Source: Escherichia coli
GTDB lineage: Bacteria > Pseudomonadota > Gammaproteobacteria > Enterobacterales > Enterobacteriaceae
Assembly: GCF_048403405.1 (NCBI RefSeq)
Contig: NZ_CP183129.1
Direction: 5' to 3' (one strand)
DNA length: 64,000 bases
Part shown: positions 35,049-56,382 of the stretch, piece after piece
How the letters are laid out: each line of letters starts with the position of its first letter
Position numbering within the stretch: position 1 is the stretch's first letter
The notes under the pieces: generated by a model
Seen by the model: the letters and a program-made list of their open reading frames with translations, nothing else
Told to the model about the DNA's origin: nothing
Databases searched by the model: none
Translations under genes and position numbers: made by a program

Positions 35049-38000
35049 TTATTTCCGTACCCGATGTCGGTGCAGCCACATCAGCTTATACGCCGCCGGG
35101 ATAATAAACAGCGATAGCAAAGGCGCGGTGATCATGCCGCCAATCATCGGCGCGGCAATCCGGCTCATCACCTCTGAACCTGCTCCCGTTCCCCACAGAA
35201 TCGGCAGCAGACCGGCGATAATCACTGCCACCGTCATCGCTTTCGGGCGCACGCGCAGGACCGCGCCGTGATACAACGCCTCATCCAGCTTCTGCTCGCT
35301 GAATGTTTGCGGATTATTCAACGACGGCTCGACCTCTATGGCGTGACGTAAATACATCAGCATCACCACGCCAAATTCGGCGGCGACTCCGGCGAGGGCA
35401 ATAAAACCGGTGCCCGTCGCCACGGAAAGATGAAAGCCCATCCACCACAGCAACCAGATGCCGCCCACCAGCGCAAACGGTACGCTGCTGATAATCAGCA
35501 ACGCTTCGCCCACCCGACGGAACGCCAGATACAACAGCACGAAGATGATCATCAGCGTCATCGGCACCATGAGTTTCAGCTTATGGTTGGCGCGCTCCAG
35601 TAGCTCGAACTGCCCGGAGAATGTCACGCTGGTGCCCGGTTTTAACTGCACTTTTTCAGCTATCGCTTTTTGCAAATCGTGAACCACCGACACCATGTCA
35701 CGATCGCGGGCATCGATATAAATCCAGCTCGTCGGGCGCGCATTCTCGGTTTTCAGCATCGACGGTCCGGTAGAGACTTTAACGTCGGCCACGTCTGCCA
35801 GGGTGATTTGCTGCTTCATCGGCGTCAGGATCGGCAACTGGCGCAGTGCCTGCGGACTATTGCGCCAGCTTTGCGGATAACGCAGATTAATTGGATAACG
35901 GGCAATCCCTTCCACCGTTTCGCCAACCATCGCCCCGCCCACCGCAGAAGTCACAAACAACTGCACATCCGCCACCGTCATACCGTAACGTGCGGCTTTT
36001 TCACGGTTAATCTCAACGTTGATATAGCGCCCACCTTCCAGACGCTCGGCAAGCGCAGAAGCCACGCCTGGCACCGTTCGTGCCACCTCTTCAATTTGCT
36101 CCGCCATCGCGTCGATATCCGCCAGCACAGTGCCGGAAACTTTAATGCCGATGGGGCTCTTAATGCCGGTTGAGAGCATATCGATACGGTTACGAATTGG
36201 CGGCACCCACAGATTCGCCAGCCCCGGCAGACGCACGGTGTTATCCAGTTCCTCAATGATTTTGTCCATCGTCATGCCTGGCCGCCACTGATCTTGTGGC
36301 TTAAGCTGGATGGTCGTTTCTACCATCTCCAGCGGAGCAGAATCGGTGGCGGTTTCCGCTTTCCCGGTTTTGCCAAATACCCGCGCCACTTCAGGTACGC
36401 TCATAATCAGCTTGTCGGTTTTTTGCAGCATACTCGCCGCCTCTGCTGCGGAAATCCCCGGCAGCGTCGATGGCATATACAACAAGTCGCCTTCATTGAT
36501 CTGCGGTAAAAATTCCCCGCCAACTTTATTGAGCGGCCAGAGAACCGTCAGCACCGAAAGCGCTGCCACCAGCAGCGTGGTTTTTGGCCAGTGCAGTACT
36601 TTCAGCAACAGCGGATGATAAGCACGAATCAAAAAGCGATTGAGCGGGTTACTGCTTTCTGGCGGAATTTTGCCACGGATCCAGTAACCCATCAGGATAG
36701 GGATCACTACGATCGCCAGCAGCGCCGCACCCGCCATCGCATACGTTTTGGTGAACGCCAGCGGGCCAAACAGACGCCCTTCCTGCCCTTCCAGGGTGAA
36801 GATCGGGATAAACGACAACGTGATAATCAGCAGACTGATAAACAGCGCCGGCCCCACTTCAACAGATGCATCGGTGATCACCTGCCAGCGCGTTTTATTA
36901 TCCAGCGTGGCGTCAGGATGCTGGTGCTGCCACTCTTCCAGTCGTTTATGCGCATTCTCGATCATGACGATAGCGGCATCGACCATCGCCCCGACGGCAA
37001 TCGCAATGCCGCCCAGCGACATAATATTGGCATTCAGCCCCTGGAAGTGCATGACAATAAAAGCAATACACAACCCCAGCGGCAACGAAATAATCGCCAC
37101 CAGCGCCGAGCGCACATGCCAGAGAAACAGCGCACAGACTACCGCCACCACAATAAACTCTTCCAGCAACTTGCCGCTGAGGTTGTCGATGGCGCGGTCA
37201 ATGAGCTGGCTGCGATCGTATGTTGTAACTATCTCCACGCCTTCCGGCAGACTGCTTTTCAGCGTTTCCAGTTTGTCTTTCACGGCGGCGATCACTTCTC
37301 GGGCGTTTTTGCCGGAGCGCAGGATCACCACCCCGCCCGCCACTTCGCCTTCGCCGTTCAGTTCGGCAATGCCCCGGCGCATCTCCGGGCCAATCTGGAC
37401 CTTCGCAACATCGCGCAGATAAACGGGCACGCCATTTTCACTGGCTTTTAAAACGATGTGATTAAAGTCGTCGAGCGTTTGCAGATAGCCGCTGGCGCGC
37501 ACCATATATTCCGCTTCCGCCAGTTCGATCGACGAACCGCCCGCTTCCTGGTTTGAAGCATCCAGCGCGCTTTTTACTTCGGCGAGACTGATGCCATATT
37601 GCGCCAGGCGCTGGGGATCGATAACCACCTGATACTCTTTCACCACACCGCCCACCGACGCCACTTCCGCAACGTCAGGGATGGTTTTTAGCTCATATTT
37701 GAGAAACCAGTCCTGCAATGAGCGTAAATCGGCCAGATCGTGCTTACCGCTGCGATCCACCAGTGCATATTCATAGATCCAGCCAACACCCGTGGCATCT
37801 GGCCCCAGCTCAGCGCTGACTCCCGCAGGCAGCTTACCCTGTACCTGGTTGAGGTACTCCAGCACCCGCGAGCGCGCCCAGTATGGATCGGTGCCATCTT
37901 CGAAAATGACATACACATAAGAGTCGCCAAACTGCGAGAAACCGCGCACAGTCTTCGCGCCAGGCACCGACAACATAGTGGTGGTTAGCGGATAAGTCAC

Positions 38001-38192
38001 CTGATTTTCAACGATTTGCGGTGCCTGACCGGGATAGCTGGTTTTAATAATCACCTGCACATCAGAGAGATCCGGCAGTGCATCCACTGGCGTGTTAATG
38101 ATGGTCCAGGTGCCCCAGATACTCAGAAACAACGCGCCCATCAGCACCAGAAAACGGTTCGCCACCGAGCGACGAATAATCCATTCAATCAT
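35049..38192 (-). CDS. cusA: RND copper/silver efflux pump
   Basis: 1047-aa RND transporter ORF. Confidence 0.95.
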
Positions 38193-38203
38193 TGGTTATT
38201 CCC

Positions 38204-39427
38204 TCAATGCGCATGGGTAGCACTTTCAGAGCGCATCCGCTCCAGTGCGCCAGAAATATTGGCTTCGGAATCAATCAGGAACAGGCCGCTGGAAACCACC
38301 TTTTCACCTTCCGCCAGACCAGAGCGTAATGCGGTGACGCCTTGCGATGCCTGGAAAACGGCAACGCGTTTCGGTACAAAGCGCCCGTCGGCATCAACGG
38401 TAATCACCCGCTGTTCGCTGCCGGTATCAATCAGCGCTTGTGACGGAATGAGCAGCATCGGTTCGCTGGCGGTGTTGAGTTGCAACCAGGCGTTCATTCC
38501 CGGCTTTAGCGCCTCGTCGGTGTTGTCGACTTCCAGGCGCAGCTGCAGCGTGCGGGTTGCGGCATCCACGCCGGGTAGCAGCGTCCATTTGCGGATGGTG
38601 AGTGTTTTATCAGGTCGTGCCGGAACGGTGAGCGTAAACTGCGAGGCATCTTTCACCAGCCAGGCGATGGACTCCGGGATCGCGGCAGTGATCCACACCG
38701 GATCCATACCCTGAATTTTCGCGACCACGTTATCTTTGGCGATATTCATTCCCGCGCGCAGATCAAACGCGGTGATCACGCCATCAATGGGCGCTTTGAG
38801 CGTAAAGCGAGTCTGGATTTTTTGCGTGGCGATCAGGCGGCGAATATCCGCCTCCGGCATTCCCGCCAGTCTCAGCCGCTCAAGAATGCCTTCAGTCTGG
38901 GTCGCCGTACCGCCAGTTTCGCGCAGCAGTAAATACTCACTCTGCGCTTCCACCCAGTCGGGAATGGTCAGGTCGAGAAGCGGCGCGCCCTTTTGTACTT
39001 TATCGCCCACGGTAAGCGGATACACCTTGTCGATAAACCCGGCGGCGCGGGCCTGCACAATGGCATACTGATACTCGTTGTAACTGACATTCGCCGGGAA
39101 ACTTTGGGCAAAAGTCAGCGGCCCGCGCGTGACGGTCGCCGTTTTCACCCCCAGATTCTGCGTCTGAGTCGGGTCAATGCGCACACCAGACGCAGAACTC
39201 TCTTCATCGGCATATTTCGGCACCAGATCCATATCCATAAACGGCGATTTACCTGGTTTATCGAACCGCGTATTGGGATACATCGGGTCGTACCAGAATA
39301 AGATTTTACGTTCTGCGGTCGACGTTTTTTCTGCGGGCGGTTCCGCCTTTGCAAACCAGGTAAAACCTGCCGCAGAAATAATACCGCCCGCGATCATGCT
39401 GCCGATAATAAGCGCGATTTTTTTCAT
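38204..39427 (-). CDS. cusB: membrane fusion protein of Cus efflux
   Basis: 407-aa ORF; synteny. Confidence 0.95.
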   Translation of the reverse strand: MKKIALIIGSMIAGGIISAAGFTWFAKAEPPAEKTSTAERKILFWYDPMYPNTRFDKPGKSPFMDMDLVPKYADEESSASGVRIDPTQTQNLGVKTATVTRGPLTFAQSFPANVSYNEYQYAIVQARAAGFIDKVYPLTVGDKVQKGAPLLDLTIPDWVEAQSEYLLLRETGGTATQTEGILERLRLAGMPEADIRRLIATQKIQTRFTLKAPIDGVITAFDLRAGMNIAKDNVVAKIQGMDPVWITAAIPESIAWLVKDASQFTLTVPARPDKTLTIRKWTLLPGVDAATRTLQLRLEVDNTDEALKPGMNAWLQLNTASEPMLLIPSQALIDTGSEQRVITVDADGRFVPKRVAVFQASQGVTALRSGLAEGEKVVSSGLFLIDSEANISGALERMRSESATHAH

Positions 39428-39442
39428 CTCATTAAACCTGGG

Positions 39443-39775
39443 TTACTGGCTGACTTTAATATCCTGTAATAAAGAAAGGTTGCCCTGCTGGACAAAATTA
39501 AACGCCACTTTGTCGCCGGTTTTTATTTCGCCCATCTTCGTCTGCGGGGTGATGGTAAAGCGCATGGTCATCTCCGGCCAGTTCACGGCAGCAATCGGAT
39601 CGTGATGGATAGTGATTTTTTTGCTTTCCAGATCAATACCTTTTACCACCCCTGTGGCACTAATGACCTGCGGTTGTGCTTCGCTCATGGTTTCATGATG
39701 ATGTTCGTTAGCCTGGGCATTAAAGCCAATAACGGTAAACAGACTGAACATTGCGACTTGCAGTGCTTTTTTCAT
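39443..39775 (-). CDS. cusF: periplasmic copper chaperone
   Basis: 110-aa ORF MKKALQVAMFSLF...; matches CusF. Confidence 0.95.
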   Translation of the reverse strand: MKKALQVAMFSLFTVIGFNAQANEHHHETMSEAQPQVISATGVVKGIDLESKKITIHHDPIAAVNWPEMTMRFTITPQTKMGEIKTGDKVAFNFVQQGNLSLLQDIKVSQ

Positions 39776-39798
39776 TTATTCTCTCCTGGAGTTAAAAA

Positions 39799-41170
39799 TT
39801 ATTGCTGCCAACCGCCACCAAGTGCGGTATATAAAGAAATTTCGTTAACCTGACGGGCATAATTCAGGTCAAGTAAAGTTTGTCGGGTTGCAAATAAAGA
39901 ACGTTCGGCATCCAGCACTTCCAGATAACTGACTGCGCCGTGCTGATATAATGCCCGCGCCCGTTGCAAAGTAATTTGCAGCGATGCCAGATAACGCTGC
40001 TGGGCGCTAATTTGATCGTTCAGGCTTTGACGTAATGCCAGCGCATCTGCCACTTCTTTAAAGGCATTCTGGATTTTCTGTTCATAATTCACCACCGACT
40101 GCTGCTGGCGAATTTCGGCGATATCCAGATTGGCCTGGTTGCGTCCGGCATTAAAAATGGGGATCTCAATTTTGGGAATAAAATTCCACATCCCGCTGCT
40201 GGCGTTAAATAAGGACGACAGATCGCTGCTGGCGGTCGATATTCCGCTGGTCAGACTGATAGACGGGAAAAATGCCGCGCGTGCAGCGCCAATATTGGCA
40301 TTAGCCGCCATCAACGCGTGTTCAGCTTCCATAATATCCGGGCGCTGCAATAAGATTTGCGACGACAAGCCCGCCGGTAATTTAACGCTTTGCAGGCTGT
40401 CGCTGTTTACTGTTTGCGCTTGCGGCAGCTTGCCGTAGCTTCCCAGCAACAGTTGCAATGCATTATTCGCCTGCGCCAGTTCCCCCTGACGTTTAGCGAT
40501 GTCGCTGCGGGTACTTTCTATCACCCCGCGAGCCTGTTCCAGCGCCAGAACATTGCTGCTACCGGTCAACAGTTGTTTTTCGACAAACGCATATGACTGC
40601 TGATAATTACGCAGCGTTTCTTCGGCTATTTGCAATTGCGCATACGCCAGTTGCTGATTGAAATAGCTTTGCGCGACATTAGAAACCAGCAGAATATGCA
40701 CCGCGCGCTGGGCTTCCTCAGTGGCTAAATAATTTTGGCGCTCGGCTTCGCTCATGTTCTTTAAGCGACCGAAAAAATCGAGATCAAAGCTGGCGTTAAG
40801 GCCGGTCGAAAACTCCCGTGTCGTGGCGGTATTCCCTTTAAGATTACCGCTCCAGCTGCCGCTGCCCTCGCCATTGAGCTGTGGGTAGCGGTCGGCATCG
40901 GTCAGACGATATTGCGCCCGTGCCTCCTGCACTTTCAGCGTCGCCATGCGCAAATCCCGGTTATTCACCAGCGCCTCGCTAATCAGCGTCTTCACCTGAT
41001 TATCAATAAAAAAGGTGCGCCAGCCCGCGTTCTGGTAGTTATCTGCTGCGTTAACCAGGCCGTTCTGGCTGAGTGAGAACTGCTTCGGTACGGGCATTGC
41101 CGGACGCTGATAATCCGGTGCCAATGAACAACCGGTTAGCGCAAGGGCCACACAAAATGGCAGAAGTTTA
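39799..41170 (-). CDS. cusC: outer-membrane factor of Cus efflux, 5' end interrupted by IS26
   Basis: Lipoprotein signal LLPFCVALALTGC is present, but the first few native codons are replaced: the reading frame runs into the IS26 terminus at 41171 and only a GTG inside IS26 could serve as start. Confidence 0.85.
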
Positions 41171-41990
41171 GGCACTGTTGCAAATAGTCGGTGGTGATAA
41201 ACTTATCATCCCCTTTTGCTGATGGAGCTGCACATGAACCCATTCAAAGGCCGGCATTTTCAGCGTGACATCATTCTGTGGGCCGTACGCTGGTACTGCA
41301 AATACGGCATCAGTTACCATGAGCTGCAGGAGATGCTGGCTGAACGCGGAGTGAATGTCGATCACTCCACGATTTACCGCTGGGTTCAGCGTTATGCGCC
41401 TGAAATGGAAAAACGGCTGCGCTGGTACTGGCGTAACCCTTCCGATCTTTGCCCGTGGCACATGGATGAAACCTACGTGAAGGTCAATGGCCGCTGGGCG
41501 TATCTGTACCGGGCCGTCGACAGCCGGGGCCGCACTGTCGATTTTTATCTCTCCTCCCGTCGTAACAGCAAAGCTGCATACCGGTTTCTGGGTAAAATCC
41601 TCAACAACGTGAAGAAGTGGCAGATCCCACGATTCATCAACACGGATAAAGCGCCCGCCTATGGTCGCGCGCTTGCTCTGCTCAAACGCGAAGGCCGGTG
41701 CCCGTCTGACGTTGAACACCGACAGATTAAGTACCGGAACAACGTGATTGAATGCGATCATGGCAAACTGAAACGGATAATCAACGCCACGCTGGGATTT
41801 AAATCCATGAAGACGGCTTACGCCACCATCAAAGGTATTGAGGTGATGCGTGCACTACGCAAAGGCCAGGCCTCAGCATTTTATTATGGTGATCCCCTGG
41901 GCGAAATGCGCCTGGTAAGCAGAGTTTTTGAAATGTAAGGCCTTTGAATAAGACAAAAGGCTGCCTCATCGCTAACTTTGCAACAGTGCC
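41171..41990 (+). mobile_element. IS26 (IS6 family), 820-bp copy 1
   Basis: Termini GGCACTGTTGCAAA ... TTTGCAACAGTGCC; internal 234-aa Tnp26. Confidence 0.95.
41234..41938 (+). CDS. tnpA: IS26 transposase Tnp26 (variant with His at residue 29)
   Basis: MNPFKGRHFQRDIILWAVRWYCKYGISY(H)ELQEM... recognised as the IS26 transposase. Confidence 0.95.
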   Translation: MNPFKGRHFQRDIILWAVRWYCKYGISYHELQEMLAERGVNVDHSTIYRWVQRYAPEMEKRLRWYWRNPSDLCPWHMDETYVKVNGRWAYLYRAVDSRGRTVDFYLSSRRNSKAAYRFLGKILNNVKKWQIPRFINTDKAPAYGRALALLKREGRCPSDVEHRQIKYRNNVIECDHGKLKRIINATLGFKSMKTAYATIKGIEVMRALRKGQASAFYYGDPLGEMRLVSRVFEM

Positions 41991-42439
41991 AATTTTACGC
42001 CGTCGGCGGTACGCAGCCAGCGCGGGGATTTGAGTCCTTCCGTGAAATTCCAGACCAGCTCACACAGCAGCCCGGTCAGGGTTTGCTCCATTTTTGGTTC
42101 CGCCGGACGTTCCAGCAGAAGCTGGAGTAGTGCGAGGCAGTATTCGCACAAGGAATCAGGTTCGGAAATAAAGTGCTCTGGTGTGGCGGGAAGGGTATCC
42201 ACGGTCAGGCTTTCGGTAAGATGCGGTGGGATGGGGTCGTGTAGTGTGGGTTGCAGTAGCGCAAGAGCCGCGTGAAGCCGCCCGCAGAGCGCCAGTCGTA
42301 GCGCTGGATCGTCGGTTTCAATCAGGGTTTCGGCAAAGCGGGCGCAGTAGTCAGCAAGGACAGTGAAATCCGTGGTGGCATTGAAGGGGACGGTCAATAG
42401 ATCGAGTAAATCGCTGTCAGTGGTGAGGATTGTAGCCAT
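41972..42439 (-). CDS. hypothetical acidic protein; 3' end runs into IS26 (probably truncated)
   Basis: 155-aa ORF with a GGAGG Shine-Dalgarno upstream of the ATG at 42439; its last codons and stop lie inside the IS26 inverted repeat. No family recognised. Confidence 0.45.
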   Translation of the reverse strand: MATILTTDSDLLDLLTVPFNATTDFTVLADYCARFAETLIETDDPALRLALCGRLHAALALLQPTLHDPIPPHLTESLTVDTLPATPEHFISEPDSLCEYCLALLQLLLERPAEPKMEQTLTGLLCELVWNFTEGLKSPRWLRTADGVKLALLQS

Positions 42440-42785
42440 AGGGCAACCTCCGATAAGTGGGTGTTCAAGCCACCACCGGAGAGGCTAATCTCGCGGGTGG
42501 TGGAACCGGGCAGGGTTAGCCTTACCAGCCTTATCGGACACTGGCGCGTCTTGCGACGCCCCCGCCCGGCCCACCATTGAGATGTAACCGTGCGAACAAC
42601 ACAAAAAAAGACGCTGGCGCGTCATGTGTCGCCGATAAGATTTCTTCAGGAGGCTAATCCCGACGCCTGATTTTGCAGGCGCGGGAGAAAGATACTGCGA
42701 TTGGTCATGAGTGGCAAGGGCTACATCATGTTTACCGACATCTCACGCAAAAATACCCTGATTATTAATAGCGAAAATCAGTTTC

Positions 42786-45700
42786 TTATTTTGGCGGTAG
42801 CTTTTTGCGGTTCTTTGCCAACTGGAATCCTTCAGGTAACGGTTTGAATTTATCGCCGCCTTTAGGCCAGCGTTTTGCCCTGCTCTGAAATGCCCTTAAC
42901 GAGTCGATATCCAGCGTTGCAGCGACCACAAAGTCATTATCACCGCCCTTCACACGAGCAATATCACGCATAAAGGGTTCTTTTGCCGGGGAACGTACGC
43001 GACTATCGCCGTATTTTCGGTTATTCACTAAAATAGTATAGGCATGAATATCCAGCGCTGCTGATTCAATCAACGATGCAAACGTATCTAGATCTTTATT
43101 CCAGCTCAATACCATTAATGCATCGAGTGCGCCCTGAAAACGGATCCTCGCTTTACTATTCTGGAGTTCAGAGCAAATCATAACGCCAAAATTGACGCCG
43201 TGATGAATATATACCGGCTTACGTTGTTTAACATTAAGTGTCGAATCCCAAGACTTACCATAAGTTGAAAATAATGCCTCATCTTCACCTACGGCGGGTT
43301 CCAGCTTGGGTTGCCATATTTTGACACTCGCTGGATAGCCGAGTCTGTTATCTGAAAGGACAAGTACGGCCTCACTCTTCAGTTGATTATCGTCTAAGTG
43401 GCGGTATTCTGTTCCCGCAATTAGACTGATACCCGCCGAACTCAAACGATCAGCAATACTGTTAACCCAGCGTAACGGGATTGAAAGCTCAGGGAATAAA
43501 ACATAATCAGGTTTAGGAGATAGTTTCAATGTTGCATTAACCAGTTCAGAAATCCGCTGGTACCTTGAACGGGACAAGTTAGATTTATTGCAGGCCATTT
43601 TAGCCCAGTCGTCCTCCTCTGTTTTAATGCTGGTTAGCGCAACGACAACTTTATGTTTCCTGTCTGTGCCAATATGAATGAATTTCTTAGGCCGAGCTTT
43701 TTTTGTCGCTTCATCTGAGTCCTGCTCCGATGCTAGCAACGTCGGTTTGATCCATACTCCGCGTAATGCTTGAGTATATTTTGCCCAAATGGTGGACGGT
43801 CTCTCATCTGGTTTTTTGTCGGATGTGGAGGGTAATCCAACACATTCGGGGGCCAGTTCTGATATTTCAGCGGGTGTTAAAGGACGTGTAGGGAAAATGT
43901 AAGGTAGGTAACTTTCGTTTTTACGATTTCCTTTAGCCACTTTTTCCAGTCGGGTATTCTTGGTTGATTTCAAAAATAGCTTAATAACGTCAATATCAAT
44001 AAGCGATGAGTCGCTCATTAATTTCAGTATTTTAACTTCTTTTTTACTATCACGCTGATTAACAAGTTTTTCTGCCGACTGACTCTTTACGATCTGTTTA
44101 TAAGGTTCCTTTGCTAAATCAGCTCGAGCTACCAATGGCGCTTTTAAATAAAAATCTGCTGAATCAAAGCGAAGATCCAGTAAATCCTTTAGATTCGTCA
44201 GACTTTGTGAAATATGATTAAAAAATGTATCCGCAAGGCACTCTTCTTTCTTTGAACGTTTATCAAGAAATAATCTGTCAGGACTGTAATATCGTGTCGC
44301 TGCATCAACAAATAGCCAGCTTAATGTGCCTTTTATACAGCGCCAAAGATCATTTACTGCTCGAGTTTTGCAACCATTTATATTCACTTCCTTACCTGAA
44401 GTAATCACCGATGCCAACAGGTTGATGGATTCGTAAGCTTTAAGTACAATTTTTTCCGCGTGCTGCCATTCATTCATACTGATAGCAAAGCCAAGCAGCC
44501 TTGGCAGATAACTAAAATGTGCAAATAGATTATCAGCCCTAAGAATATGGTTGTAGGCAAACTGATAAAACTCTTCCCGCTGTTCTTTCCATTCACTTGG
44601 AGGCAGATCTCGTGCCAGTGTTTCAACGTAGCGTAATTGCAGTGACCAGCCCAAACGACGAATGGTTAATCCATCCGCACGGCGCAGAGTATCGGCATTT
44701 TCACCTACACTACCGGCAGCGGAAAGGACTTTAGCTGCGGTGGAGTGTTCCAGTTGATCCGGTGAAGGCATCAAGCGGTGTTCACTAGAAAGCTCGTAGA
44801 TCTCCTTTTCGATACTGTCGAGCAGGTCTATTCCAGCCCTCCCTTGAAGCACGAAAAGTTTTTGCTTATCGGATTGTAACTGGATGGTGGTCTTACCCTG
44901 GAAATGCTCGCCCTGCTGTATTTGCCATATTTGTTTTTGCTCGTTTTTCAAATAAACGCAATCATTGCCAAGCCTATCTTGCAGCAATAACATAAATTCG
45001 TGATTATTAGTAATTGTCCCTGTATCGCGTATTACAAGGAACATATCATCGACATAACGACCGTAGTGAATTGGTGATAGTTTTTCAATGACTAATTTAT
45101 CCCAATGGTGTAGCAATATATTTGAAATGATCCGACTGGCTGTTAATCCAATGACCAGACCACCATTAATAACAGGTGTTTTGTACGCTATTTTCTTTCC
45201 AAATGCCGCTGCGCCGTCAGACCAGTGCTTTAAGAATACTGCTAACTGTGCAGTAAACGCTTTTTCATCCTCAGTCAGTTTTATGTTTAGTGTGTTATAG
45301 AGATCATCAGAGGTTATAGCCAGTGGATCAATAAAATGATAGTAACTTTTTAAATCCAGTGAGGCGGCGATAATGTCACGATCTTTTTCCAACTCGTCAC
45401 GTATAGCTTTTAAGCCATCACCACGCCATTTTTGGTAGGGCTGGAAGTAGGGGCTAAAAGAACCCACGGCACTGATATGGAATGGATTATCCTGCTCATT
45501 GCTAAATAATTCATCATTACGAATACGCTTTAGCCGCGCGCCATAGCAACAGTTATCTAAGCTGGCATCAAATTTATGCCCGACCATGTTAATCCATAGT
45601 GCAGAGATAATGTGACTATCAACCGGGAAGTCACCAATAATACGAAACTCTGGTATCAGATCAAAATTATTAAATAAATGGTCGGCTGCTCGTTTAGGAT

Positions 45701-45995
45701 TAGAAAAGTGGACGTGTCCATTTTGGGATTCATGTTTTTTCTTTGTGGTTAATTTTTTCGGTAACAAACGAAATTTGCCAATCAACTTCTTATTGCTACT
45801 GAATCCATCTTCGCTCTGCAAAAGATCTAAGAGTTTTTGCAGGTTTTCAAGTAATTCCTGCTCATACTCGGCAAATTTGATAGCAACAGGAAATGTATTC
45901 TCAAAGAAGCTATCGGCTTTTGCTTTCCGGTAAGCGACCAGAAGGTCTTCAATCGTCAGATCATCCCAGCCAGTGAAAATTGCCTGATATGTCAT
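42786..45995 (-). CDS. reverse transcriptase-nitrilase fusion protein (DRT type 1 / UG1-like defence-associated RT)
   Basis: 1069-aa ORF with AAGGA Shine-Dalgarno. RT motif A ASLDLKSYYHFID, motif B GGLVIGLTASRIISNILL, motif C RYVDDMFLV (nt 45033-45059); C-terminal CN-hydrolase domain with FPELS (Glu836), VKIWQPK and GVMICSEL (Cys941, nt 43173-43175). Confidence 0.85.
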   Translation of the reverse strand: MTYQAIFTGWDDLTIEDLLVAYRKAKADSFFENTFPVAIKFAEYEQELLENLQKLLDLLQSEDGFSSNKKLIGKFRLLPKKLTTKKKHESQNGHVHFSNPKRAADHLFNNFDLIPEFRIIGDFPVDSHIISALWINMVGHKFDASLDNCCYGARLKRIRNDELFSNEQDNPFHISAVGSFSPYFQPYQKWRGDGLKAIRDELEKDRDIIAASLDLKSYYHFIDPLAITSDDLYNTLNIKLTEDEKAFTAQLAVFLKHWSDGAAAFGKKIAYKTPVINGGLVIGLTASRIISNILLHHWDKLVIEKLSPIHYGRYVDDMFLVIRDTGTITNNHEFMLLLQDRLGNDCVYLKNEQKQIWQIQQGEHFQGKTTIQLQSDKQKLFVLQGRAGIDLLDSIEKEIYELSSEHRLMPSPDQLEHSTAAKVLSAAGSVGENADTLRRADGLTIRRLGWSLQLRYVETLARDLPPSEWKEQREEFYQFAYNHILRADNLFAHFSYLPRLLGFAISMNEWQHAEKIVLKAYESINLLASVITSGKEVNINGCKTRAVNDLWRCIKGTLSWLFVDAATRYYSPDRLFLDKRSKKEECLADTFFNHISQSLTNLKDLLDLRFDSADFYLKAPLVARADLAKEPYKQIVKSQSAEKLVNQRDSKKEVKILKLMSDSSLIDIDVIKLFLKSTKNTRLEKVAKGNRKNESYLPYIFPTRPLTPAEISELAPECVGLPSTSDKKPDERPSTIWAKYTQALRGVWIKPTLLASEQDSDEATKKARPKKFIHIGTDRKHKVVVALTSIKTEEDDWAKMACNKSNLSRSRYQRISELVNATLKLSPKPDYVLFPELSIPLRWVNSIADRLSSAGISLIAGTEYRHLDDNQLKSEAVLVLSDNRLGYPASVKIWQPKLEPAVGEDEALFSTYGKSWDSTLNVKQRKPVYIHHGVNFGVMICSELQNSKARIRFQGALDALMVLSWNKDLDTFASLIESAALDIHAYTILVNNRKYGDSRVRSPAKEPFMRDIARVKGGDNDFVVAATLDIDSLRAFQSRAKRWPKGGDKFKPLPEGFQLAKNRKKLPPK

Positions 45996-46289
45996 GCGTT
46001 ATCGTCCTTAGATTACAGTCTGTACAGAATTAGCCAGCCGTTTCATGCCCGAAGGGGGGCTCTTGACACCAGTAATCCATCAGTGAGGCTGGCAATAATT
46101 TTGATTTGTATCCATGTTACACGCTCCCCGCAACCAGTCCGAGCATATATTTGTCACATTTTTCCCGAAAGTGATTAAGTTTGAATTTTTTGTTTAATGT
46201 CGATTTTTAGTCGACAAAATGAGGAATAAGTAAACTATTTCTTGCTGTGGCGTATCCCTGAATCTACACTGGTTTAAATATTTGTACTA

Positions 46290-47093
46290 ATGTCTATTCA
46301 GAGGCGACAGTTGCCAAACTATCTAAACTGGCTGATGCAGCACACGCTACCCGGCCAGGTGCTGCTCCAGTCATGGCTTACCCGCAACGGCATAGATCGT
46401 AAGCTCTCTTATCTCTATGTGAAGAATGGCTGGCTCAGGCGGATCGCTCACGGCGTATACTGCCGGACGGGCCGTGAGCCGGATTGGGTAGACGCGGTTT
46501 ACTGCCTTCAAACACAGTGGGAAAAGCCTGTTCGGGTGGCGGGGCTAACCAGCCTTGCGCTTCAGGGCCATGCGCACTATACCGAACCGGGTAAGCCGCA
46601 GGTCTGGCTCGCGCTTCCGGCTTACGTTAAGCTGCCGGGATGGTTTGCTGCCTTCGAACAATCTGCAACATTTATCACGCTGTATACATCGGGGCTTACC
46701 GTAGATGTAACGTCATTGACTACGGAACTGAAAATTGGCGACCGCCAGTTAGCAGGCAGTGCCCCGGAACTGGCCGCGTATGAGATCGCCTGCGGCGTTC
46801 CTTCGTTGATATCGTTCGAACATGCCGATGCTCTGTTTCAGGGGATGAATCTTCTCAGCCCACGCAAATTGCAGGCACTGCTTCGCGCCAGCCATTCGGT
46901 TAAAACCAACCGGGTGATGCTTTACCTTGCCCGGCGTAATGGACACCCTTATTTTCAGTATATTGATCAAAGCGGTATAGAAACAGGTACGGGAAAGCGG
47001 CAAATCATACCCGGCGGCTGGCTGGAGCCGGATTATCAAATTACTGTTCCACGCGCATTTAAACCGGAAGGAGTCGAAGATGGATCTGCGTGA
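46290..47093 (+). CDS. AbiEi-like antitoxin / transcriptional regulator (type IV TA)
   Basis: 267-aa ORF immediately upstream of, and overlapping by 14 bp, an AbiEii-like nucleotidyltransferase gene; N-terminal wHTH-like region with an R-x-x-x-G-V-Y motif. No clear Shine-Dalgarno, so the start is uncertain. Confidence 0.65.
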   Translation: MSIQRRQLPNYLNWLMQHTLPGQVLLQSWLTRNGIDRKLSYLYVKNGWLRRIAHGVYCRTGREPDWVDAVYCLQTQWEKPVRVAGLTSLALQGHAHYTEPGKPQVWLALPAYVKLPGWFAAFEQSATFITLYTSGLTVDVTSLTTELKIGDRQLAGSAPELAAYEIACGVPSLISFEHADALFQGMNLLSPRKLQALLRASHSVKTNRVMLYLARRNGHPYFQYIDQSGIETGTGKRQIIPGGWLEPDYQITVPRAFKPEGVEDGSA

Positions 47094-48000
47094 TAGCTAT
47101 GCCCGGCAGGTCAAACTGTTGATGGCCGCTCTGCCGTATGTGGCGAAGGAGTCCTGTTTCGCGTTGAAAGGCGGCACCGCAATCAATTTGTTTGTGCAGG
47201 ATTTTCCCCGTCTGTCGGTGGATATTGATCTGGCGTACAAGAGCTTTGCGGATCGCGATACTGATTTGGCGGCTATCAACGACGCTTTGAAGAGGATTAC
47301 TGCATCGCTGAACGGCAGACCGGGGATCACCGCGATTCGGCAGGAAAATAAAGCGGATGAAAAGCGCATCATTGTGAATACCGCTGATGCAAAGATTAAG
47401 ATCGAGGTTAGCCCGGTCTGGCGCGGGCTGTTGTTGCCTCCGGCAGAAATGCCTGTGTGCGAACGTGTGGAAATGGAGTATGGCTTCACCACCATGAGTG
47501 TCGTCTCGCTGGCGGATCTTTATGGCGGTAAAATCTGCGCTGCGCTTGATCGTCAGCACCCGCGCGATCTGTTTGATGTGCTGAATATGCTGGAGAAACC
47601 GGGACTGATGCGGGAGATCTTTGACGGTTTTCTTTGTTATCTGGCAGGCCATCCCCGCCCCATCGCCGAGTTGCTGGCTCCAAACTGGGATACAGAGCGG
47701 ATCGCCACGTTGTACGCGCAGGAATTTTCGGGGATGACTCAGCAGGAAACGTCGCTGGAATCGCTGCTGTCAGTAACGACTTTGCTGCCGCAGGCGTTGA
47801 AGTCACATCTTACGGATCTGGATCGCGAGTTCTTGCTCAGTTTTAAGCAAAACAGCCCTGACTGGTCGCGGTATCGCTATCCTGAAATTCAGCATCTTCC
47901 GGCTATTCGCTGGAAGCAACGTAATCTGGCGGTGCTGAAAGATAAAAATCCGGCGAAGTATGTGGCGGCGGTGAATAAGCTAGAGAGGGTGCTGGCGTAA
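47080..48000 (+). CDS. AbiEii-like nucleotidyltransferase toxin (DUF1814 family)
   Basis: 306-aa ORF with GGAG Shine-Dalgarno; N-terminal nucleotidyltransferase motif LKGGTAINLF...LSVDIDLAY typical of AbiEii/AbiGii toxins. Confidence 0.8.
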   Translation: MDLRDSYARQVKLLMAALPYVAKESCFALKGGTAINLFVQDFPRLSVDIDLAYKSFADRDTDLAAINDALKRITASLNGRPGITAIRQENKADEKRIIVNTADAKIKIEVSPVWRGLLLPPAEMPVCERVEMEYGFTTMSVVSLADLYGGKICAALDRQHPRDLFDVLNMLEKPGLMREIFDGFLCYLAGHPRPIAELLAPNWDTERIATLYAQEFSGMTQQETSLESLLSVTTLLPQALKSHLTDLDREFLLSFKQNSPDWSRYRYPEIQHLPAIRWKQRNLAVLKDKNPAKYVAAVNKLERVLA

Positions 48001-48364
48001 TCAATAGACCAGCATTAATCACGGATGATTACCAATCAGACAGATATGGTTAAATCATCGAATTCATAATTAATACTTTTTCTTACGCCGCTGAACAGCT
48101 TGAAAAGGATACATATTTTAAATATCAGTGAAGTGGACAGTTTATTGCCGTTATTAATAGAGATGGAGGAATAAATACGCGTATTCTACTATTGCAACAA
48201 AAACAACGATGATGATCAGTTTTCATAATGAAGTAACCTGACAGATATAAAAATGTTGATTGAGGCTCAATGCCCGGATGAAGGTTGTCGAGGGAGCCAG
48301 GTGGTTTTTTCTTTTGGGTGATCTCCATTGCTGGATAGTCCCCTCTTTCTCGCTCAAAGCAGAC

Positions 48365-48689
48365 TGTACTGCACCCATTTTGTTGGACGATGAAATGGAA
48401 TAGCCCCTAATATGTCAAAGCCAAAATACCCTTTTGAAAAGCGCCTTGAAGTCGTGAATCACTACTTCACAACTGATGATGGTTACAGGATCATCTCGGC
48501 ACGTTTTGGTGTCCCCCGAACCCAGGTCAGGACATGGGTTGCCCTCTATGAAAAACATGGAGAAAAAGGTTTAATTCCCAAACCTAAAGGCGTTAGTGCT
48601 GATCCAGAGTTGCGTATTAAGGTCGTGAAAGCTGTGATCGAGCAGCACATGTCCCTTAATCAGGCTGCTGCTCACTTTATGCTTGCTGG
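48365..48689 (+). mobile_element. IS150 5' fragment (325 bp), truncated by IS26
   Basis: Begins with the IS150 terminal repeat TGTACTGCACCCATTTTG and is identical in protein sequence to the start of insJ in the full copy at 27720-29162; ends abruptly at the IS26 terminus. Confidence 0.9.
48412..48689 (+). pseudogene. insJ: insJ fragment (first ~92 codons of IS150 OrfA)
   Basis: MSKPKYPFEKR...AAAHFMLAG, then the frame reads into IS26. Confidence 0.85.
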
Positions 48690-49509
48690 GGCACTGTTGC
48701 AAATAGTCGGTGGTGATAAACTTATCATCCCCTTTTGCTGATGGAGCTGCACATGAACCCATTCAAAGGCCGGCATTTTCAGCGTGACATCATTCTGTGG
48801 GCCGTACGCTGGTACTGCAAATACGGCATCAGTTACCGTGAGCTGCAGGAGATGCTGGCTGAACGCGGAGTGAATGTCGATCACTCCACGATTTACCGCT
48901 GGGTTCAGCGTTATGCGCCTGAAATGGAAAAACGGCTGCGCTGGTACTGGCGTAACCCTTCCGATCTTTGCCCGTGGCACATGGATGAAACCTACGTGAA
49001 GGTCAATGGCCGCTGGGCGTATCTGTACCGGGCCGTCGACAGCCGGGGCCGCACTGTCGATTTTTATCTCTCCTCCCGTCGTAACAGCAAAGCTGCATAC
49101 CGGTTTCTGGGTAAAATCCTCAACAACGTGAAGAAGTGGCAGATCCCACGATTCATCAACACGGATAAAGCGCCCGCCTATGGTCGCGCGCTTGCTCTGC
49201 TCAAACGCGAAGGCCGGTGCCCGTCTGACGTTGAACACCGACAGATTAAGTACCGGAACAACGTGATTGAATGCGATCATGGCAAACTGAAACGGATAAT
49301 CAACGCCACGCTGGGATTTAAATCCATGAAGACGGCTTACGCCACCATCAAAGGTATTGAGGTGATGCGTGCACTACGCAAAGGCCAGGCCTCAGCATTT
49401 TATTATGGTGATCCCCTGGGCGAAATGCGCCTGGTAAGCAGAGTTTTTGAAATGTAAGGCCTTTGAATAAGACAAAAGGCTGCCTCATCGCTAACTTTGC
49501 AACAGTGCC
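48690..49509 (+). mobile_element. IS26 (IS6 family), 820-bp copy 2
   Basis: Same termini as copy 1, same orientation; one nucleotide differs from copy 1 (G at 48838 versus A at 41319). Confidence 0.95.
48753..49457 (+). CDS. tnpA: IS26 transposase Tnp26
   Basis: 234-aa ORF with ...GISYRELQEM..., the form recalled as canonical for Tnp26. Confidence 0.95.
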   Translation: MNPFKGRHFQRDIILWAVRWYCKYGISYRELQEMLAERGVNVDHSTIYRWVQRYAPEMEKRLRWYWRNPSDLCPWHMDETYVKVNGRWAYLYRAVDSRGRTVDFYLSSRRNSKAAYRFLGKILNNVKKWQIPRFINTDKAPAYGRALALLKREGRCPSDVEHRQIKYRNNVIECDHGKLKRIINATLGFKSMKTAYATIKGIEVMRALRKGQASAFYYGDPLGEMRLVSRVFEM

Positions 49510-51543
49510 AAACCGTTAGCGATTATGGTTCCGGCGTGGAATGAAACGGGCGTCATCGGCAATATGGCCGAGCTGGCGGCGACCACGCTCGACTATGAAA
49601 ACTATCATATCTTTGTTGGCACCTACCCCAACGACCCCGATACACAGCGTGATGTTGACGAAGTGTGCGCTCGCTTCCCGAACGTGCATAAGGTAGTCTG
49701 CGCGCGTCCTGGCCCCACCAGCAAAGCCGACTGCCTGAACAACGTGCTGGACGCCATCACCCAGTTTGAGCGTAGCGCCAATTTCGCTTTTGCTGGTTTT
49801 ATTCTGCATGACGCCGAAGACGTAATTTCACCGATGGAATTGCGTCTGTTCAACTATCTGGTCGAGCGTAAAGATCTGATTCAGATCCCGGTGTATCCGT
49901 TCGAACGCGAATGGACGCACTTCACCAGCATGACTTACATTGATGAGTTTTCAGAACTGCATGGCAAAGATGTTCCGGTGCGTGAAGCCCTCGCCGGACA
50001 AGTGCCCAGCGCAGGCGTCGGTACCTGTTTCAGCCGCCGCGCCGTGACCGCACTGTTAGCTGACGGTGACGGTATTGCTTTCGACGTGCAGAGTCTTACT
50101 GAAGATTACGACATTGGTTTCCGCCTGAAAGAAAAAGGTATGACGGAAATTTTTGTCCGTTTTCCGGTGGTGGACGAAGCCAAAGAACGCGAGCAGCGTA
50201 AATTTTTACAGCACGCGCGGACGTCAAACATGATCTGCATGCGCGAATATTTCCCTGATACCTTTTCGACTGCGGTTCGACAAAAATCTCGCTGGATCAT
50301 CGGCATTGTTTTCCAGGGCTTTAAAACCCACAAATGGACCTCCAGCCTGACGCTGAACTACTTTCTCTGGCGCGACCGCAAAGGGGCAATCAGTAACTTT
50401 GTCAGCTTTCTCGCGATGCTGGTGATGATCCAGCTTCTGCTGTTACTGGCGTATGAAAGTTTGTGGCCCGATGCCTGGCATTTCCTTTCTATTTTCAGCG
50501 GCAGCGCATGGTTAATGACCCTGCTGTGGCTAAACTTTGGTTTGATGGTTAACCGCATCGTGCAGCGGGTGATTTTTGTCACTGGCTACTACGGTCTGAC
50601 GCAGGGGCTGCTATCTGTCCTGCGTCTTTTCTGGGGCAACCTGATTAACTTCATGGCCAACTGGCGCGCGTTAAAACAGGTACTTCAACACGGCGATCCA
50701 CGTCGTGTCGCGTGGGATAAAACAACGCATGACTTCCCCAGCGTGACTGGCGATACCCGCTCGTTGCGCCCGTTAGGCCAAATTCTGCTGGAAAATCAGG
50801 TCATCACTGAAGAACAACTCGATACAGCACTGCGTAATCGCGTCGAAGGTCTACGCCTGGGCGGTTCAATGCTGATGCAGGGGCTGATTAGCGCCGAACA
50901 GCTGGCACAGGCGCTGGCAGAGCAAAACGGCGTGGCGTGGGAATCCATCGACGCCTGGCAGATCCCGTCCTCGCTGATTGCCGAAATGCCGGCCTCCGTG
51001 GCGCTGCATTATGCAGTGCTGCCGCTGCGTCTGGAAAATGATGAGTTAATTGTCGGCAGTGAAGATGGTATTGACCCGGTTTCGCTGGCGGCCCTGACGC
51101 GTAAAGTCGGACGCAAAGTGCGTTACGTCATTGTTCTGCGGGGACAAATTGTCACGGGGTTACGTCACTGGTATGCACGCCGACGCGGTCACGATCCGCG
51201 GGCAATGTTGTACAATGCGATTCAGCATCAGTGGCTCACGGAACAGCAGGCCGGTGAAATCTGGCGGCAATATGTGCCGCATCAGTTCCTGTTCGCCGAA
51301 ATACTGACCACGCTCGGTCATATTAATCGTTCAGCAATTAACGTGTTGTTATTGCGCCATGAACGCAGTTCTCTGCCGCTCGGCAAGTTTTTGGTCACCG
51401 AAGGCGTTATCAGCCAGGAAACGTTGGATCGCGTCCTGACAATTCAACGCGAATTACAAGTTTCGATGCAATCACTATTACTCAAAGCAGGTTTAAACAC
51501 AGAACAGGTTGCGCAACTGGAGTCCGAAAATGAAGGAGAATAA
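49510..51543 (+). pseudogene. nfrB: phage N4 adsorption protein B (glycosyltransferase family 2), 5'-truncated by IS26
   Basis: The frame is open from the IS26 junction; the first Met gives 672 aa against a recalled native length of about 745 aa, so N-terminal membrane segments and the promoter are missing. Confidence 0.85.
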
Positions 51544-54502
51544 CCTTAATCGCGTCATCGGATGGTCTGGTTTACTGCTGACGTCTTTATTGAGTACCAG
51601 CGCACTCGCAGACAATATCGGCACCAGCGCAGAAGAGCTGGGGCTGAGCGATTATCGCCATTTTGTTATTTATCCCCGTCTCGATAAGGCGCTGAAGGCA
51701 CAGAAAAATAACGACGAAGCAACCGCCATCCGCGAATTTGAATATATACACCAACAGGTGCCGGATAATATTCCGCTAACTTTATACCTTGCGGAAGCCT
51801 ATCGCCATTTTGGTCATGATGACCGGGCGCGGCTGTTGCTTGAGGATCAACTGAAACGTCACCCAGGAGATGCCCGACTTGAGCGCAGTCTGGCGGCTAT
51901 TCCAGTTGAAGTGAAAAGCGTTACGACTGTTGAAGAACTGCTTGCCCAGCAAAAAGCGTGCGACGCTGCGCCGACCCTGCGTTGTCGCAGTGAAGTCGGG
52001 CAGAATGCCCTGCGGCTGGCACAATTACCTGTCGCCAGAGCGCAACTGAACGATGCGACGTTTACTGCATCGCCGGAAGGAAAAACGCTGCGAACCGATC
52101 TGCTGCAACGCGCAATCTACCTGAAACAATGGTCCCAGGCAGATACGCTATACAATGAAACACGCCAGCAGAACACATTAAGCGCGGCAGAACGCCGCCA
52201 GTGGTTTGATGTGCTTCTTGCCGGGCATCTGGACGATCGGATCCTGGCGCTGCAATCACAGGGGATCTTCACCGATCCTCAGTCATATATTACTTACGCG
52301 ACCGCGCTGGCTTATCGTGGCGAAAAAGCACGCCTCCAGCATTATCTCATTGAAAATACGCCGCTATTTACCACGGACGCACAAGAGAAAAGTTGGCTCT
52401 ATCTGTTATCTAAATACAGCGCCAACCCCGTTCAGGCGTTGGCGAATTATACGGTACAGTTTGCCGACAACCACCAGTATGTTGTTGGCGCGACGCTACC
52501 GGTGCTGTTAAAAGAAGGTCAGTACGACGCAGCGCAAAAACTGCTCGCCACCCTCCCCGCCAATGAAATGCTTGAGGAGCGTTATACCGTTAGCGTGGCG
52601 ACCCATAACAAGGCTGAAGCTCTGCGTCTGGCACGATTGCTGTATCAGCAAGAACCGGCAAATCTTACCCGCCTGGATCAACTGACCTGGCAACTGATGC
52701 AGAACGAGCAGTCACGCGAAGCTGCCGATTTATTGCTGCAACGCTATCCTTTCCAGGGCGATGCGCGTGTCAGCCAGACTTTAATGGCGCGACTGGCGTC
52801 TCTGCTGGAAAGTCATCCTTACCTGGCAACTCCGGCGAAGGTGGCGATTTTATCGAAACCCTTACCGCTGGCGGAGCAACGTCAGTGGCAAAGTCAGTTG
52901 CCGGGTATTGCAGATAATTGCCCGGCAATAGTTCGCTTGCTGGGCGATATGTCGCCTTCCTACGATGCCGCCGCCTGGAACCGTCTGGCAAAGTGTTATC
53001 GGGACACGCTACCCGGTGTGGCGTTGTATGCATGGCTTCAGGCCGAACAACGACAACCGAACGCCTGGCAACATCGTGCGGTAGCCTATCAGGCGTATCA
53101 GGTTGAGGACTACGCCACCGCACTGGCGGCCTGGCAGAAAATCAGTCTTCACGACATGAGCAATGAGGATCTGCTTGCTGCTGCCAATACCGCCCAGGCG
53201 GCAGGAAATGGTGCGGCTCGCGATCGCTGGCTTCAGCAGGCAGAACAACGTGGGCTGGGAAACAATGCCCTCTACTGGTGGCTACATGCGCAACGTTACA
53301 TTCCTGGTCAGCCGGAACTCGCACTGAACGATCTCACGCGCTCAATCAATATTGCGCCTTCTGCCAACGCTTACGTTGCGCGGGCGACAATTTATCGCCA
53401 ACGTCATAATGTCCCGGCGGCGGTGAGTGATTTGCGCGCCGCACTGGAACTGGAACCGAATAATAGCAACACCCAAGCAGCGCTCGGTTACGCCTTGTGG
53501 GATAGCGGTGATATCGCACAGTCGCGGGAAATGCTCGAACAGGCGCATAAAGGGCTACCGGACGATCCGGCACTTATCCGACAACTGGCCTACGTGAACC
53601 AGCGTCTGGATGACATGCCTGCGACGCAGCACTACGCCCGGCTGGTGATTGATGACATTGATAATCAGGCGCTGATAACCCCACTGACCCCAGAGCAAAA
53701 TCAGCAACGCTTCAATTTCCGCCGTCTGCATGAGGAGGTCGGTCGCCGCTGGACGTTCAGTTTCGATTCTTCCATCGGCTTGCGTTCCGGCGCGATGAGT
53801 ACCGCTAACAATAATGTCGGCGGCGCAGCGCCAGGGAAAAGCTATCGTAGCTACGGGCAACTGGAAGCCGAGTACCGCATCGGACGCAATATGCTGCTGG
53901 AAGGCGACCTGCTCTCAGTTTATAGCCGCGTCTTTGCCGATACCGGAGAAAACGGGGTGATGATGCCGGTGAAAAATCCGATGTCCGGCACCGGTCTGCG
54001 CTGGAAGCCGCTGCGCGATCAGATCGTTTTCCTCGCCGTCGAACAGCAGTTGCCGCTGAACGGGCAAAATGGCGCATCCGATACCATGCTGCGCGCCAGC
54101 GCCTCATTCTTTAATGGCGGCAAATACAGCGACGAATGGCACCCGAACGGTTCAGGCTGGTTTGCCCAAAACCTGTACCTCGATGCGGCGCAATATGTCC
54201 GCCAGGATATTCAGGCGTGGACGGCAGATTATCGCGTAAGCTGGCATCAGAAGGTGGCGAACGGACAGACTATTGAGCCTTACGCTCACGTTCAGGACAA
54301 CGGTTATCGTGATAAAGGCACTCAGGGCGCGCAGCTTGGCGGTGTCGGGGTCCGCTGGAATATCTGGACCGGCGAGACGCACTACGACGCCTGGCCGCAC
54401 AAAGTCAGTCTCGGCGTCGAATATCAACATACCTTTAAGGCGATTAATCAACGTAACGGAGAGCGCAACAACGCGTTTCTCACCATTGGAGTGCACTGGT
54501 AA
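51530..54502 (+). CDS. nfrA: phage N4 adsorption protein A (outer membrane)
   Basis: Start at MKENNLNRVIGWSG; about 990 aa; overlaps the nfrB 3' end. Confidence 0.9.
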   Translation: MKENNLNRVIGWSGLLLTSLLSTSALADNIGTSAEELGLSDYRHFVIYPRLDKALKAQKNNDEATAIREFEYIHQQVPDNIPLTLYLAEAYRHFGHDDRARLLLEDQLKRHPGDARLERSLAAIPVEVKSVTTVEELLAQQKACDAAPTLRCRSEVGQNALRLAQLPVARAQLNDATFTASPEGKTLRTDLLQRAIYLKQWSQADTLYNETRQQNTLSAAERRQWFDVLLAGHLDDRILALQSQGIFTDPQSYITYATALAYRGEKARLQHYLIENTPLFTTDAQEKSWLYLLSKYSANPVQALANYTVQFADNHQYVVGATLPVLLKEGQYDAAQKLLATLPANEMLEERYTVSVATHNKAEALRLARLLYQQEPANLTRLDQLTWQLMQNEQSREAADLLLQRYPFQGDARVSQTLMARLASLLESHPYLATPAKVAILSKPLPLAEQRQWQSQLPGIADNCPAIVRLLGDMSPSYDAAAWNRLAKCYRDTLPGVALYAWLQAEQRQPNAWQHRAVAYQAYQVEDYATALAAWQKISLHDMSNEDLLAAANTAQAAGNGAARDRWLQQAEQRGLGNNALYWWLHAQRYIPGQPELALNDLTRSINIAPSANAYVARATIYRQRHNVPAAVSDLRAALELEPNNSNTQAALGYALWDSGDIAQSREMLEQAHKGLPDDPALIRQLAYVNQRLDDMPATQHYARLVIDDIDNQALITPLTPEQNQQRFNFRRLHEEVGRRWTFSFDSSIGLRSGAMSTANNNVGGAAPGKSYRSYGQLEAEYRIGRNMLLEGDLLSVYSRVFADTGENGVMMPVKNPMSGTGLRWKPLRDQIVFLAVEQQLPLNGQNGASDTMLRASASFFNGGKYSDEWHPNGSGWFAQNLYLDAAQYVRQDIQAWTADYRVSWHQKVANGQTIEPYAHVQDNGYRDKGTQGAQLGGVGVRWNIWTGETHYDAWPHKVSLGVEYQHTFKAINQRNGERNNAFLTIGVHW

Positions 54503-56337: not shown

Positions 56338-56382
56338 AGGGCAAAGCGGAAACGGATAGGACGGGGATAAATGAAGAAGAAA

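Follow-up and report, generated by a model that had tools for sequence, protein, structure and literature searches.

In a 64,000-nucleotide stretch of an Escherichia coli chromosome (NCBI RefSeq assembly GCF_048403405.1, contig NZ_CP183129.1), referred to below as the window, two directly oriented copies of the insertion sequence IS26 enclose the genes of two anti-phage systems between truncated cusC and nfrB genes: a reverse transcriptase (RT) with a nitrilase region and the AbiE pair. The segment (window 41171-49509) belongs to the well-known class of IS26 pseudo-compound transposons. Judged by sequence identity, its cargo is a single piece of the ancestor's own thrW locus. We put at roughly 60% the probability that the 8.3-kb segment was formed within this chromosome through a translocatable unit (TU), re-insertion of that unit at cus-nfrB, and an adjacent deletion.

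Structure of the segment and origin of its cargo

The whole unit spans 8,339 bp and is made up of the following parts (nt, nucleotides; aa, amino acids; ORF, open reading frame).

41171-41990, plus strand: IS26 copy 1, 820 bp, with tnp26 at 41234-41938 and a private single-nucleotide polymorphism (SNP) at IS nt 149 (R29H)
41991-42439, minus strand: hypothetical thrW-island gene, 471 nt when intact, here missing its last 22 nt, with the frame continuing into IS26
42485-42658, minus strand: remnant of an "ash family" regulator, named after the RefSeq annotation of the identical sequence in a relative (locus L001)
42786-45995, minus strand: RT with a C-terminal nitrilase region, 1069 aa, of the UG5-large type, a class 3 defense-associated RT
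46290-47093, plus strand: abiEi antitoxin gene (PADLOC AbiEi, 2.5e-79; RefSeq start at 46311)
47080-48000, plus strand: abiEii nucleotidyltransferase toxin gene (PADLOC AbiEii, 4.4e-116), with a 14-nt overlap with abiEi
48001-48364: AT-rich sequence native to the thrW locus, including a ykgR pseudogene remnant at 48154-48222 on the minus strand
48365-48689, plus strand: IS150 nt 1-325, comprising the left inverted repeat and the start of the first ORF, cut by IS26
48690-49509, plus strand: IS26 copy 2, 820 bp, with tnp26 at 48753-49457, canonical sequence

Both bounding elements have the features expected of IS26, namely, a length of 820 bp, perfect 14-bp terminal inverted repeats, and a single intact ORF for the 234-aa transposase Tnp26. 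The inverted repeat GGCACTGTTGCAAA occurs four times in the window, always at an expected IS26 end, against a chance expectation of 0.07. The original prediction, which was made from the sequence without database searches, described two direct 820-bp copies bracketing 6.7 kb between cusC and nfrB, and this description is accurate; the copies are 819/820 identical, and the cargo measures 6,699 bp. Copy 2 is 100% identical to the annotated IS26 in CP088862.1. The sole difference between the two copies is a G-to-A change in copy 1 at IS nt 149 (window 41319), which gives R29H near the N terminus of Tnp26; copy 2 has the G. The change is absent from all 22,122 IS26 places in 5,426 complete E. coli genomes and may be a mutation private to this strain or an error in the consensus. 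It was not found as a known IS26 variant, as the seven records listed at ≥99% proved to be artifacts of joined pieces.

The flanks read GAAGTTTA and AATTTTAC on the two sides of copy 1 and CTTGCTGG and AAACCGTT on the two sides of copy 2, just as first reported. A comparison by eye found no direct or reverse-complement match among these four 8-bp flanks, and there is no 8-bp target-site duplication around either IS26 copy or around the pair. A missing target duplication is expected of the products of secondary reactions. Two direct IS26 copies, both on the plus strand, that bound a passenger segment make the structure a pseudo-compound transposon. It is not a classical compound (class I) transposon, a unit flanked by a target-site duplication, since the outer flanks GAAGTTTA and AAACCGTT differ and 16.6 kb is missing between them. 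The earlier conclusion that this is not a product of simple transposition is borne out by the direct IS26 bounds and the lack of target-site duplications.

The origin of the cargo is clear from close relatives. Window positions 41991-48364 form one contiguous block that is identical at 6374/6374 positions to the thrW (tRNA-Thr) island of six RefSeq genomes (TUM14771, GN02461, 4621, TUM1226, OX030728, and MS 69-1), the same six in which the cus flank is identical or nearly so. In these relatives, the native position of the block is directly downstream of tRNA-Thr (thrW), inside a decayed integrative element with the order integrase remnant, HTH remnant, 471-nt hypothetical gene, "ash family" remnant, 1069-aa RT, abiEi, abiEii, ykgR remnant, and LysR-type regulator. 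The block is carried by 258 genomes, at thrW in every record inspected, and is about 99.3% identical (43 SNPs) in other lineages. The original prediction listed the cargo correctly as a truncated ORF, an RT-nitrilase, an AbiEi/AbiEii pair, an AT-rich stretch, and an IS150 fragment, but its interpretation of these parts as a mosaic does not hold, as the block is contiguous and 100% identical to the thrW island of the closest relatives. What had been taken for an AT-rich spacer is the native ykgR-remnant region of the thrW locus, 100% identical to that of a relative up to position 18374 of its locus (L001).

The cargo ends in the first 325 nt, that is, the left end, of IS150 (48365-48689). There is no IS150 at this junction point in the closest relatives. 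FDAARGOS_1289 (NZ_CP069882.1), which belongs to another lineage and in which the RT/AbiE block is not present, has a complete IS150 at exactly the same thrW-locus position (9044-10495 of locus L005), so this piece does not speak for a mosaic either. The shared position suggests either that IS150 has an insertion hotspot there or that the two strains have this stretch from a common ancestor. In the simplest reading, an IS150 was already at thrW in the immediate ancestor, and IS26 landed inside it later. At the other end of the cargo, the left IS26 interrupts the hypothetical gene 22 nt ahead of its stop. The window also contains a complete IS150 at 27714-29163, between hokE and ybdK, which is found in TUM14771 and TUM1226 as well and is identical in sequence to the 325-nt fragment in the cargo.

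Outside the segment, the window (1-41170 and 49510-64000) is collinear with the chromosome of TUM14771 (NZ_CP128875.1), with 4 mismatches in 55,661 bp, and the IS26-bounded segment is the sole break. The alignment ends 11 nt inside cusC and restarts 204 nt inside nfrB, which confirms that both neighbors are cut at their 5' ends. Aligning the flanks to IS-free E. coli, a check proposed with the original prediction, thus defines a deleted interval of 16,619 bp in TUM14771 (4,604,378-4,620,996). On the cus side, this interval comprises the cusC start and promoter, cusR, and cusS, followed by an island with vgrG, a DcrB-related gene, a large Rhs gene and orphan Rhs tips, immunity-like ORFs, and a PAAR fragment; on the nfrB side are ISAs1 and the first 68 nfrB codons. 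GN02461 has the same interval as TUM14771; in 4621, MS 69-1, and TUM1226, it is 19.6 kb long, a difference that amounts to a 3-kb extra Rhs tip. The segment had been placed where cusS and cusR are expected, which is right only in the K-12 gene order. This lineage loses 16.6-19.6 kb, including vgrG, the DcrB-like gene, Rhs, and ISAs1, and by using the K-12 order, the original prediction understated the loss about six-fold. Nothing lies between cusS and nfrB in K-12; in TUM14771, the vgrG-DcrB-like-Rhs island with several orphan Rhs tips and ISAs1 is located there (31197-44389 of locus L004).

In TUM14771, the block is found on the plus strand at 4,278,727-4,285,100 and the cus flank matches the minus strand from 4,620,997. 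The cargo has therefore been relocated, over a distance of about 320-336 kb, and its orientation with respect to the flanks is reversed.

The arrangement is unique among the sequences that we searched. No record in the 5,426 complete E. coli genomes covers ≥80% of a 13-kb query spanning the segment in one place. The four IS26 junctions and the island/IS150 junction were searched for in one 400-nt query (E ≤ 1e-20); the IS26 junctions were absent from these genomes, and only the island/IS150 junction was matched, in FDAARGOS_1289. The same query had no match among 72,556 plasmids, and two of the IS26 junctions, searched for as exact patterns in metagenome contigs, gave no match. The proteins specific to the junctions, namely, the fusion of the hypothetical gene with IS26 and the shortened NfrB, have no record either. 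A second location of the IS26-cargo unit was not found in any collection searched. None of the four junctions is present in TUM14771, GN02461, 4621, MS 69-1, or TUM1226, and the annotations of two of these relatives, TUM14771 and TUM1226, show no IS26 in the cus-nfrB interval. IS26-free genomes of the lineage do not have the cargo at cus-nfrB, an outcome that leaves the original prediction standing.

A search of plasmids and chromosomes for the source of the cargo, also proposed earlier, led to the thrW island of the lineage and to no true plasmid. A plasmid origin was rejected, as the only "plasmid" matches were two odd circular records of prophage and chromosomal DNA from the same lineage: NZ_CP146678.1 (MS 69-1 unnamed3, 64,057 bp) and CP088862.1 (pA16EC0305-2, 35,406 bp). 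In both circles, a prophage (P27-family terminase, contractile tail) is joined at thrW to adjacent chromosomal DNA that includes the RT. The MS 69-1 circle additionally has AbiE, pao, and ecp genes; the end of pA16EC0305-2 lies 102 nt upstream of the RT start codon, and this record contains an IS26 with a clean 8-bp duplication, GTTATTTC. The circles could be aberrant excision products, in situ replication products, or assembly artifacts.

Formation of the segment

It is established that copy-in transposition of IS26 produces an 8-bp duplication. When the copy-in reaction is intramolecular and in cis, adjacent DNA is deleted and a circle of one IS26 and the deleted segment, a TU, is set free (PMC8722046). 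TUs form de novo in this adjacent-deletion mode, which Hall describes as the first step of gene recruitment, and the insertion of a TU gives rise to a pseudo-compound transposon (PMC8722046). The targeted conservative reaction, in which two IS26 copies take part, exceeds copy-in about 1000-fold in frequency and makes no duplication (PMC7885326). Studies of IS26 in plasmids have likewise attributed deletions to intramolecular transposition in cis, while in trans, an intramolecular event results in an inversion, marked by inverted 8-bp repeats (PMC4471558).

What the sequences show directly is the structure of the segment, the origin and inversion of its cargo, how much DNA is missing, and that the junctions are unique; the order and type of the IS26 reactions behind these features are inferred. 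In the route that we favor, IS26 would first have inserted into IS150 at the thrW locus. A copy-in reaction in the adjacent-deletion mode, directed at a site in the hypothetical gene at a distance of 6.7 kb, would then have released a circular TU consisting of one IS26 and the cargo. This TU would have re-entered the chromosome about 320-336 kb away, in the cus-nfrB interval, either beside an IS26 already located there, by the targeted conservative reaction and without duplication, or by copy-in. Before or after integration, an IS26 adjacent deletion would have removed about 16.6-19.6 kb, from cusC nt 11 to nfrB nt 204, and with it one copy of any duplication. Such a deletion at cus-nfrB would leave unmatched outer flanks, and both short-range steps, 6.7 kb at thrW and 16.6 kb at cus, would follow from local adjacent-deletion action by IS26. 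The TU route expects a thrW locus that has lost the cargo but retained an IS26.

Several points weigh against this route. Only the end-state structure is visible within the 64-kb window, and the thrW locus is outside it. Three to five separate IS26 events are required, and the relatives provided no example of a precursor, which would have an IS26 either in the thrW IS150 or between cus and nfrB. It is also possible that the missing 16.6 kb sits elsewhere in the genome. Finally, the window by itself does not discriminate between a TU and a series of inversions.

Such inversions would involve no free circle: IS26 would have inverted about 330 kb between thrW and cus-nfrB in successive rounds of intramolecular replicative transposition in trans. 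This could have occurred as two inversions and an adjacent deletion or as a reciprocal exchange, after which the cusRS-vgrG-Rhs interval would now be at thrW between IS26 copies. The cargo is inverted compared to its native orientation, which makes both new junctions of the inversion type, and when we worked out the orientations by hand, both versions gave the observed junctions and direct IS26 copies. IS26-driven inversions are also reported to be frequent (PMC4471558). However, each version needs two independent long-range targets that, out of a chromosome of 5 Mb, happen to lie no more than 6.7 kb or 16.6 kb from a previous breakpoint, a coincidence that we estimate at well under 1% each if targets are random. 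There is no inverted 8-bp repeat pair among the four flanks, although the partner junctions would lie outside the window, and the intermediates would bear a 330-kb inversion. We therefore regard an origin by inversion as unlikely, if well worth considering.

A wrong assembly is quite improbable. In this case, the four junctions would be real but their pairing across the 820-bp repeat would be wrong, for example, if the chromosome had the structure cusC'-IS26-'nfrB and a loop of IS26 and cargo were located elsewhere or were circular. The IS26 repeat is too long for short reads to span, the arrangement is unique among 5,426 genomes, and the two odd circles (MS 69-1 unnamed3 and pA16EC0305-2) show a region that either is difficult to assemble or is genuinely unstable. 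On the other hand, the one-SNP difference between the IS26 copies means that the assembly resolved them separately, which argues against the repeat collapse that the original prediction had named as a possible pitfall, and a complete IS150 resolved in place within the 64-kb window implies long-read data. Even with a wrong pairing, the junctions IS26/hypothetical gene, IS150'/IS26, cusC'/IS26, and IS26/'nfrB would still be required, so capture of the cargo by IS26 and the deletion would still be real.

The import of a ready-made IS26-bounded defense transposon from a plasmid or another strain is highly unlikely. The architecture does match that of IS26-bounded resistance units, and IS26 itself almost certainly came from a resistance plasmid, as plasmids account for 18,743 of the 22,122 IS26 places in E. 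coli genomes. However, the thrW island in the chromosome of its own lineage matches the cargo at 100% and those of other lineages at 99.3%, and the cargo is on no true plasmid. All four IS26 junctions are missing from plasmids and E. coli genomes, and the two searched for in metagenome contigs are missing there.

Cargo genes and consequences of the rearrangement

The RT has a PADLOC RT_UG5-nitrilase match of 1034 bits over residues 1-1068 and an RTasNitrilase match (1.9e-43) over residues 783-1058. As an RT of about 1000 aa or more with a fused C-terminal C-N hydrolase (nitrilase), it is a member of UG5-large. At E ≤ 0.001, Pfam-A recognized no RT domain and no C-N hydrolase domain in this 1069-aa protein. 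In RefSeq, the identical protein is a "hypothetical protein" where it occurs in this lineage and an "RNA-directed DNA polymerase" in the annotations of other lineages. By eye, without a transmembrane predictor, no ORF of ≥30 aa in the stretch from the RT stop to the hypothetical gene looked hydrophobic, and the RT thus seems to lack the small downstream transmembrane partner that is a minority feature of UG5-large. The adjacent, overlapping abiEi and abiEii genes constitute an AbiE system (type IV toxin-antitoxin/abortive infection). The cargo keeps the intergenic region from which the RT and abiE genes diverge, and with this native control region, the expression of both the RT-nitrilase and AbiE at the new site is likely; as far as the sequence tells, the relocated genes probably still work. 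Of the remaining cargo genes, the hypothetical gene belongs to no PADLOC or PHROG family, and the "ash family" remnant, which has weak PHROG matches to transcriptional regulators, is a relic of the decayed integrative element at thrW.

The genes on either side of the segment are as follows.

35049-39775: cusFBA, following cusC
39799-41170, minus strand: cusC', without its first 11 nt, its promoter, and its regulators
49510-51543, plus strand: nfrB', without its first 204 nt, equal to 68 codons that include the N-terminal hydrophobic membrane helix
about 51530-54502: nfrA, following nfrB

A GTG in the left end of IS26 (window 41168-41175, minus strand) is in frame with cusC codon 4. The N terminus predicted for a start at this GTG is VPKLLPFCVALALTGC, compared to the native MSPCKLLPFCVALALTGC (MSPCKLLPF...), and such a start is predicted to keep the lipoprotein signal and the lipobox. 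No obvious ribosome-binding site was seen by eye at the GTG, and consensus scans found no sigma-70-like promoter at the cusC/IS26 junction and no promoter-like site at the IS26/nfrB junction. Hybrid promoters directed outward from the IS26 ends, toward cusC or nfrB, were considered and rejected, as none fit the consensus scan. We predict that cusCFBA is left without a promoter or CusRS and that regulated copper/silver efflux is lost. The type VI vgrG-Rhs effector island is likewise predicted to be lost from the cus-nfrB site. nfrB is needed for the adsorption of phage N4, and with NfrB lacking residues 1-68, which contain the N-terminal helix, resistance to N4-like phages is predicted.

The resistance-gene clusters of Gram-negative pathogens are assembled mainly by IS26, and to our knowledge, its first pick-up of chromosomal genes is rarely caught. 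Here, the donor site, the recipient site, and the cargo can all be read from near-identical relatives, which makes the segment a clean natural example of de novo capture with adjacent deletion. It leaves the current understanding of IS26 action unchanged but indicates that the IS26 machinery can package anti-phage defense genes too. The earlier idea of a mobile vehicle for defense genes is supported with regard to structural potential; the cargo, however, is the strain's own chromosomal DNA, and the unit and its junctions are found nowhere else. The collections searched gave no evidence of any spread of the unit. If such units reach IS26-rich plasmids, defense and resistance genes could travel together. 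We tentatively suggest, while leaning toward a more cautious view, that the segment is a snapshot of the first step of IS26 gene recruitment acting on defense genes, that the RT-nitrilase/AbiE block could enter IS26-bearing resistance plasmids by the targeted conservative reaction, and that, given the loss of the NfrB N terminus, phage pressure might have selected the rearrangement. We found no report of IS26-bounded defense units in the literature, although such reports may exist.

Comparison with known systems

UG5-large RT-nitrilases are known from defense hotspots of P4-like satellites (Mestre et al. 2022, PMC9226505; DRT11, bioRxiv 10.64898/2025.12.16.694600). The protein described here shares with them a large RT with a fused C-terminal nitrilase and a full-length match to PADLOC RT_UG5-nitrilase, and its native home is similar, a decayed integrative element at a tRNA gene, beside AbiE. 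One UG5-large protein, encoded in a hotspot of an E. coli P4-like satellite, has been found to provide defense, and a transmembrane partner is reported to be needed there (PMC9226505). In contrast to that system, we saw no downstream transmembrane partner among ORFs of ≥30 aa here; DRT11, which is partner-less, also defends (bioRxiv 10.64898/2025.12.16.694600).

The reshaping of replicons by IS26 (He et al. 2015, PMC4471558) has in common with our segment an adjacent deletion without duplications and genes that are truncated exactly at the IS ends. That work concerned plasmids, whereas the event here is chromosomal, spans about 330 kb, and shows no matched inverted 8-bp pair in the window.

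The segment is also close to the IS26 pseudo-compound transposons and TUs (Harmer, Moran and Hall 2014; Harmer, Pong and Hall 2020; PMC8722046), such as Tn4352, Tn6020, and the IS26-blaSHV unit derived from the Klebsiella chromosome. Like these, it has two direct 820-bp IS26 copies around a central segment, no target duplication, as after targeted conservative insertion or adjacent deletion, and a chromosomal cargo taken from beside IS26, with adjoining resident DNA deleted. It differs from them in that the donor is the recipient chromosome itself and in that it is known from a single genome and no plasmid yet. The behavior of IS26 in this chromosome is ordinary, and it is the cargo that is unusual, consisting of the anti-phage genes for a UG5 RT-nitrilase and AbiE and not of resistance genes.

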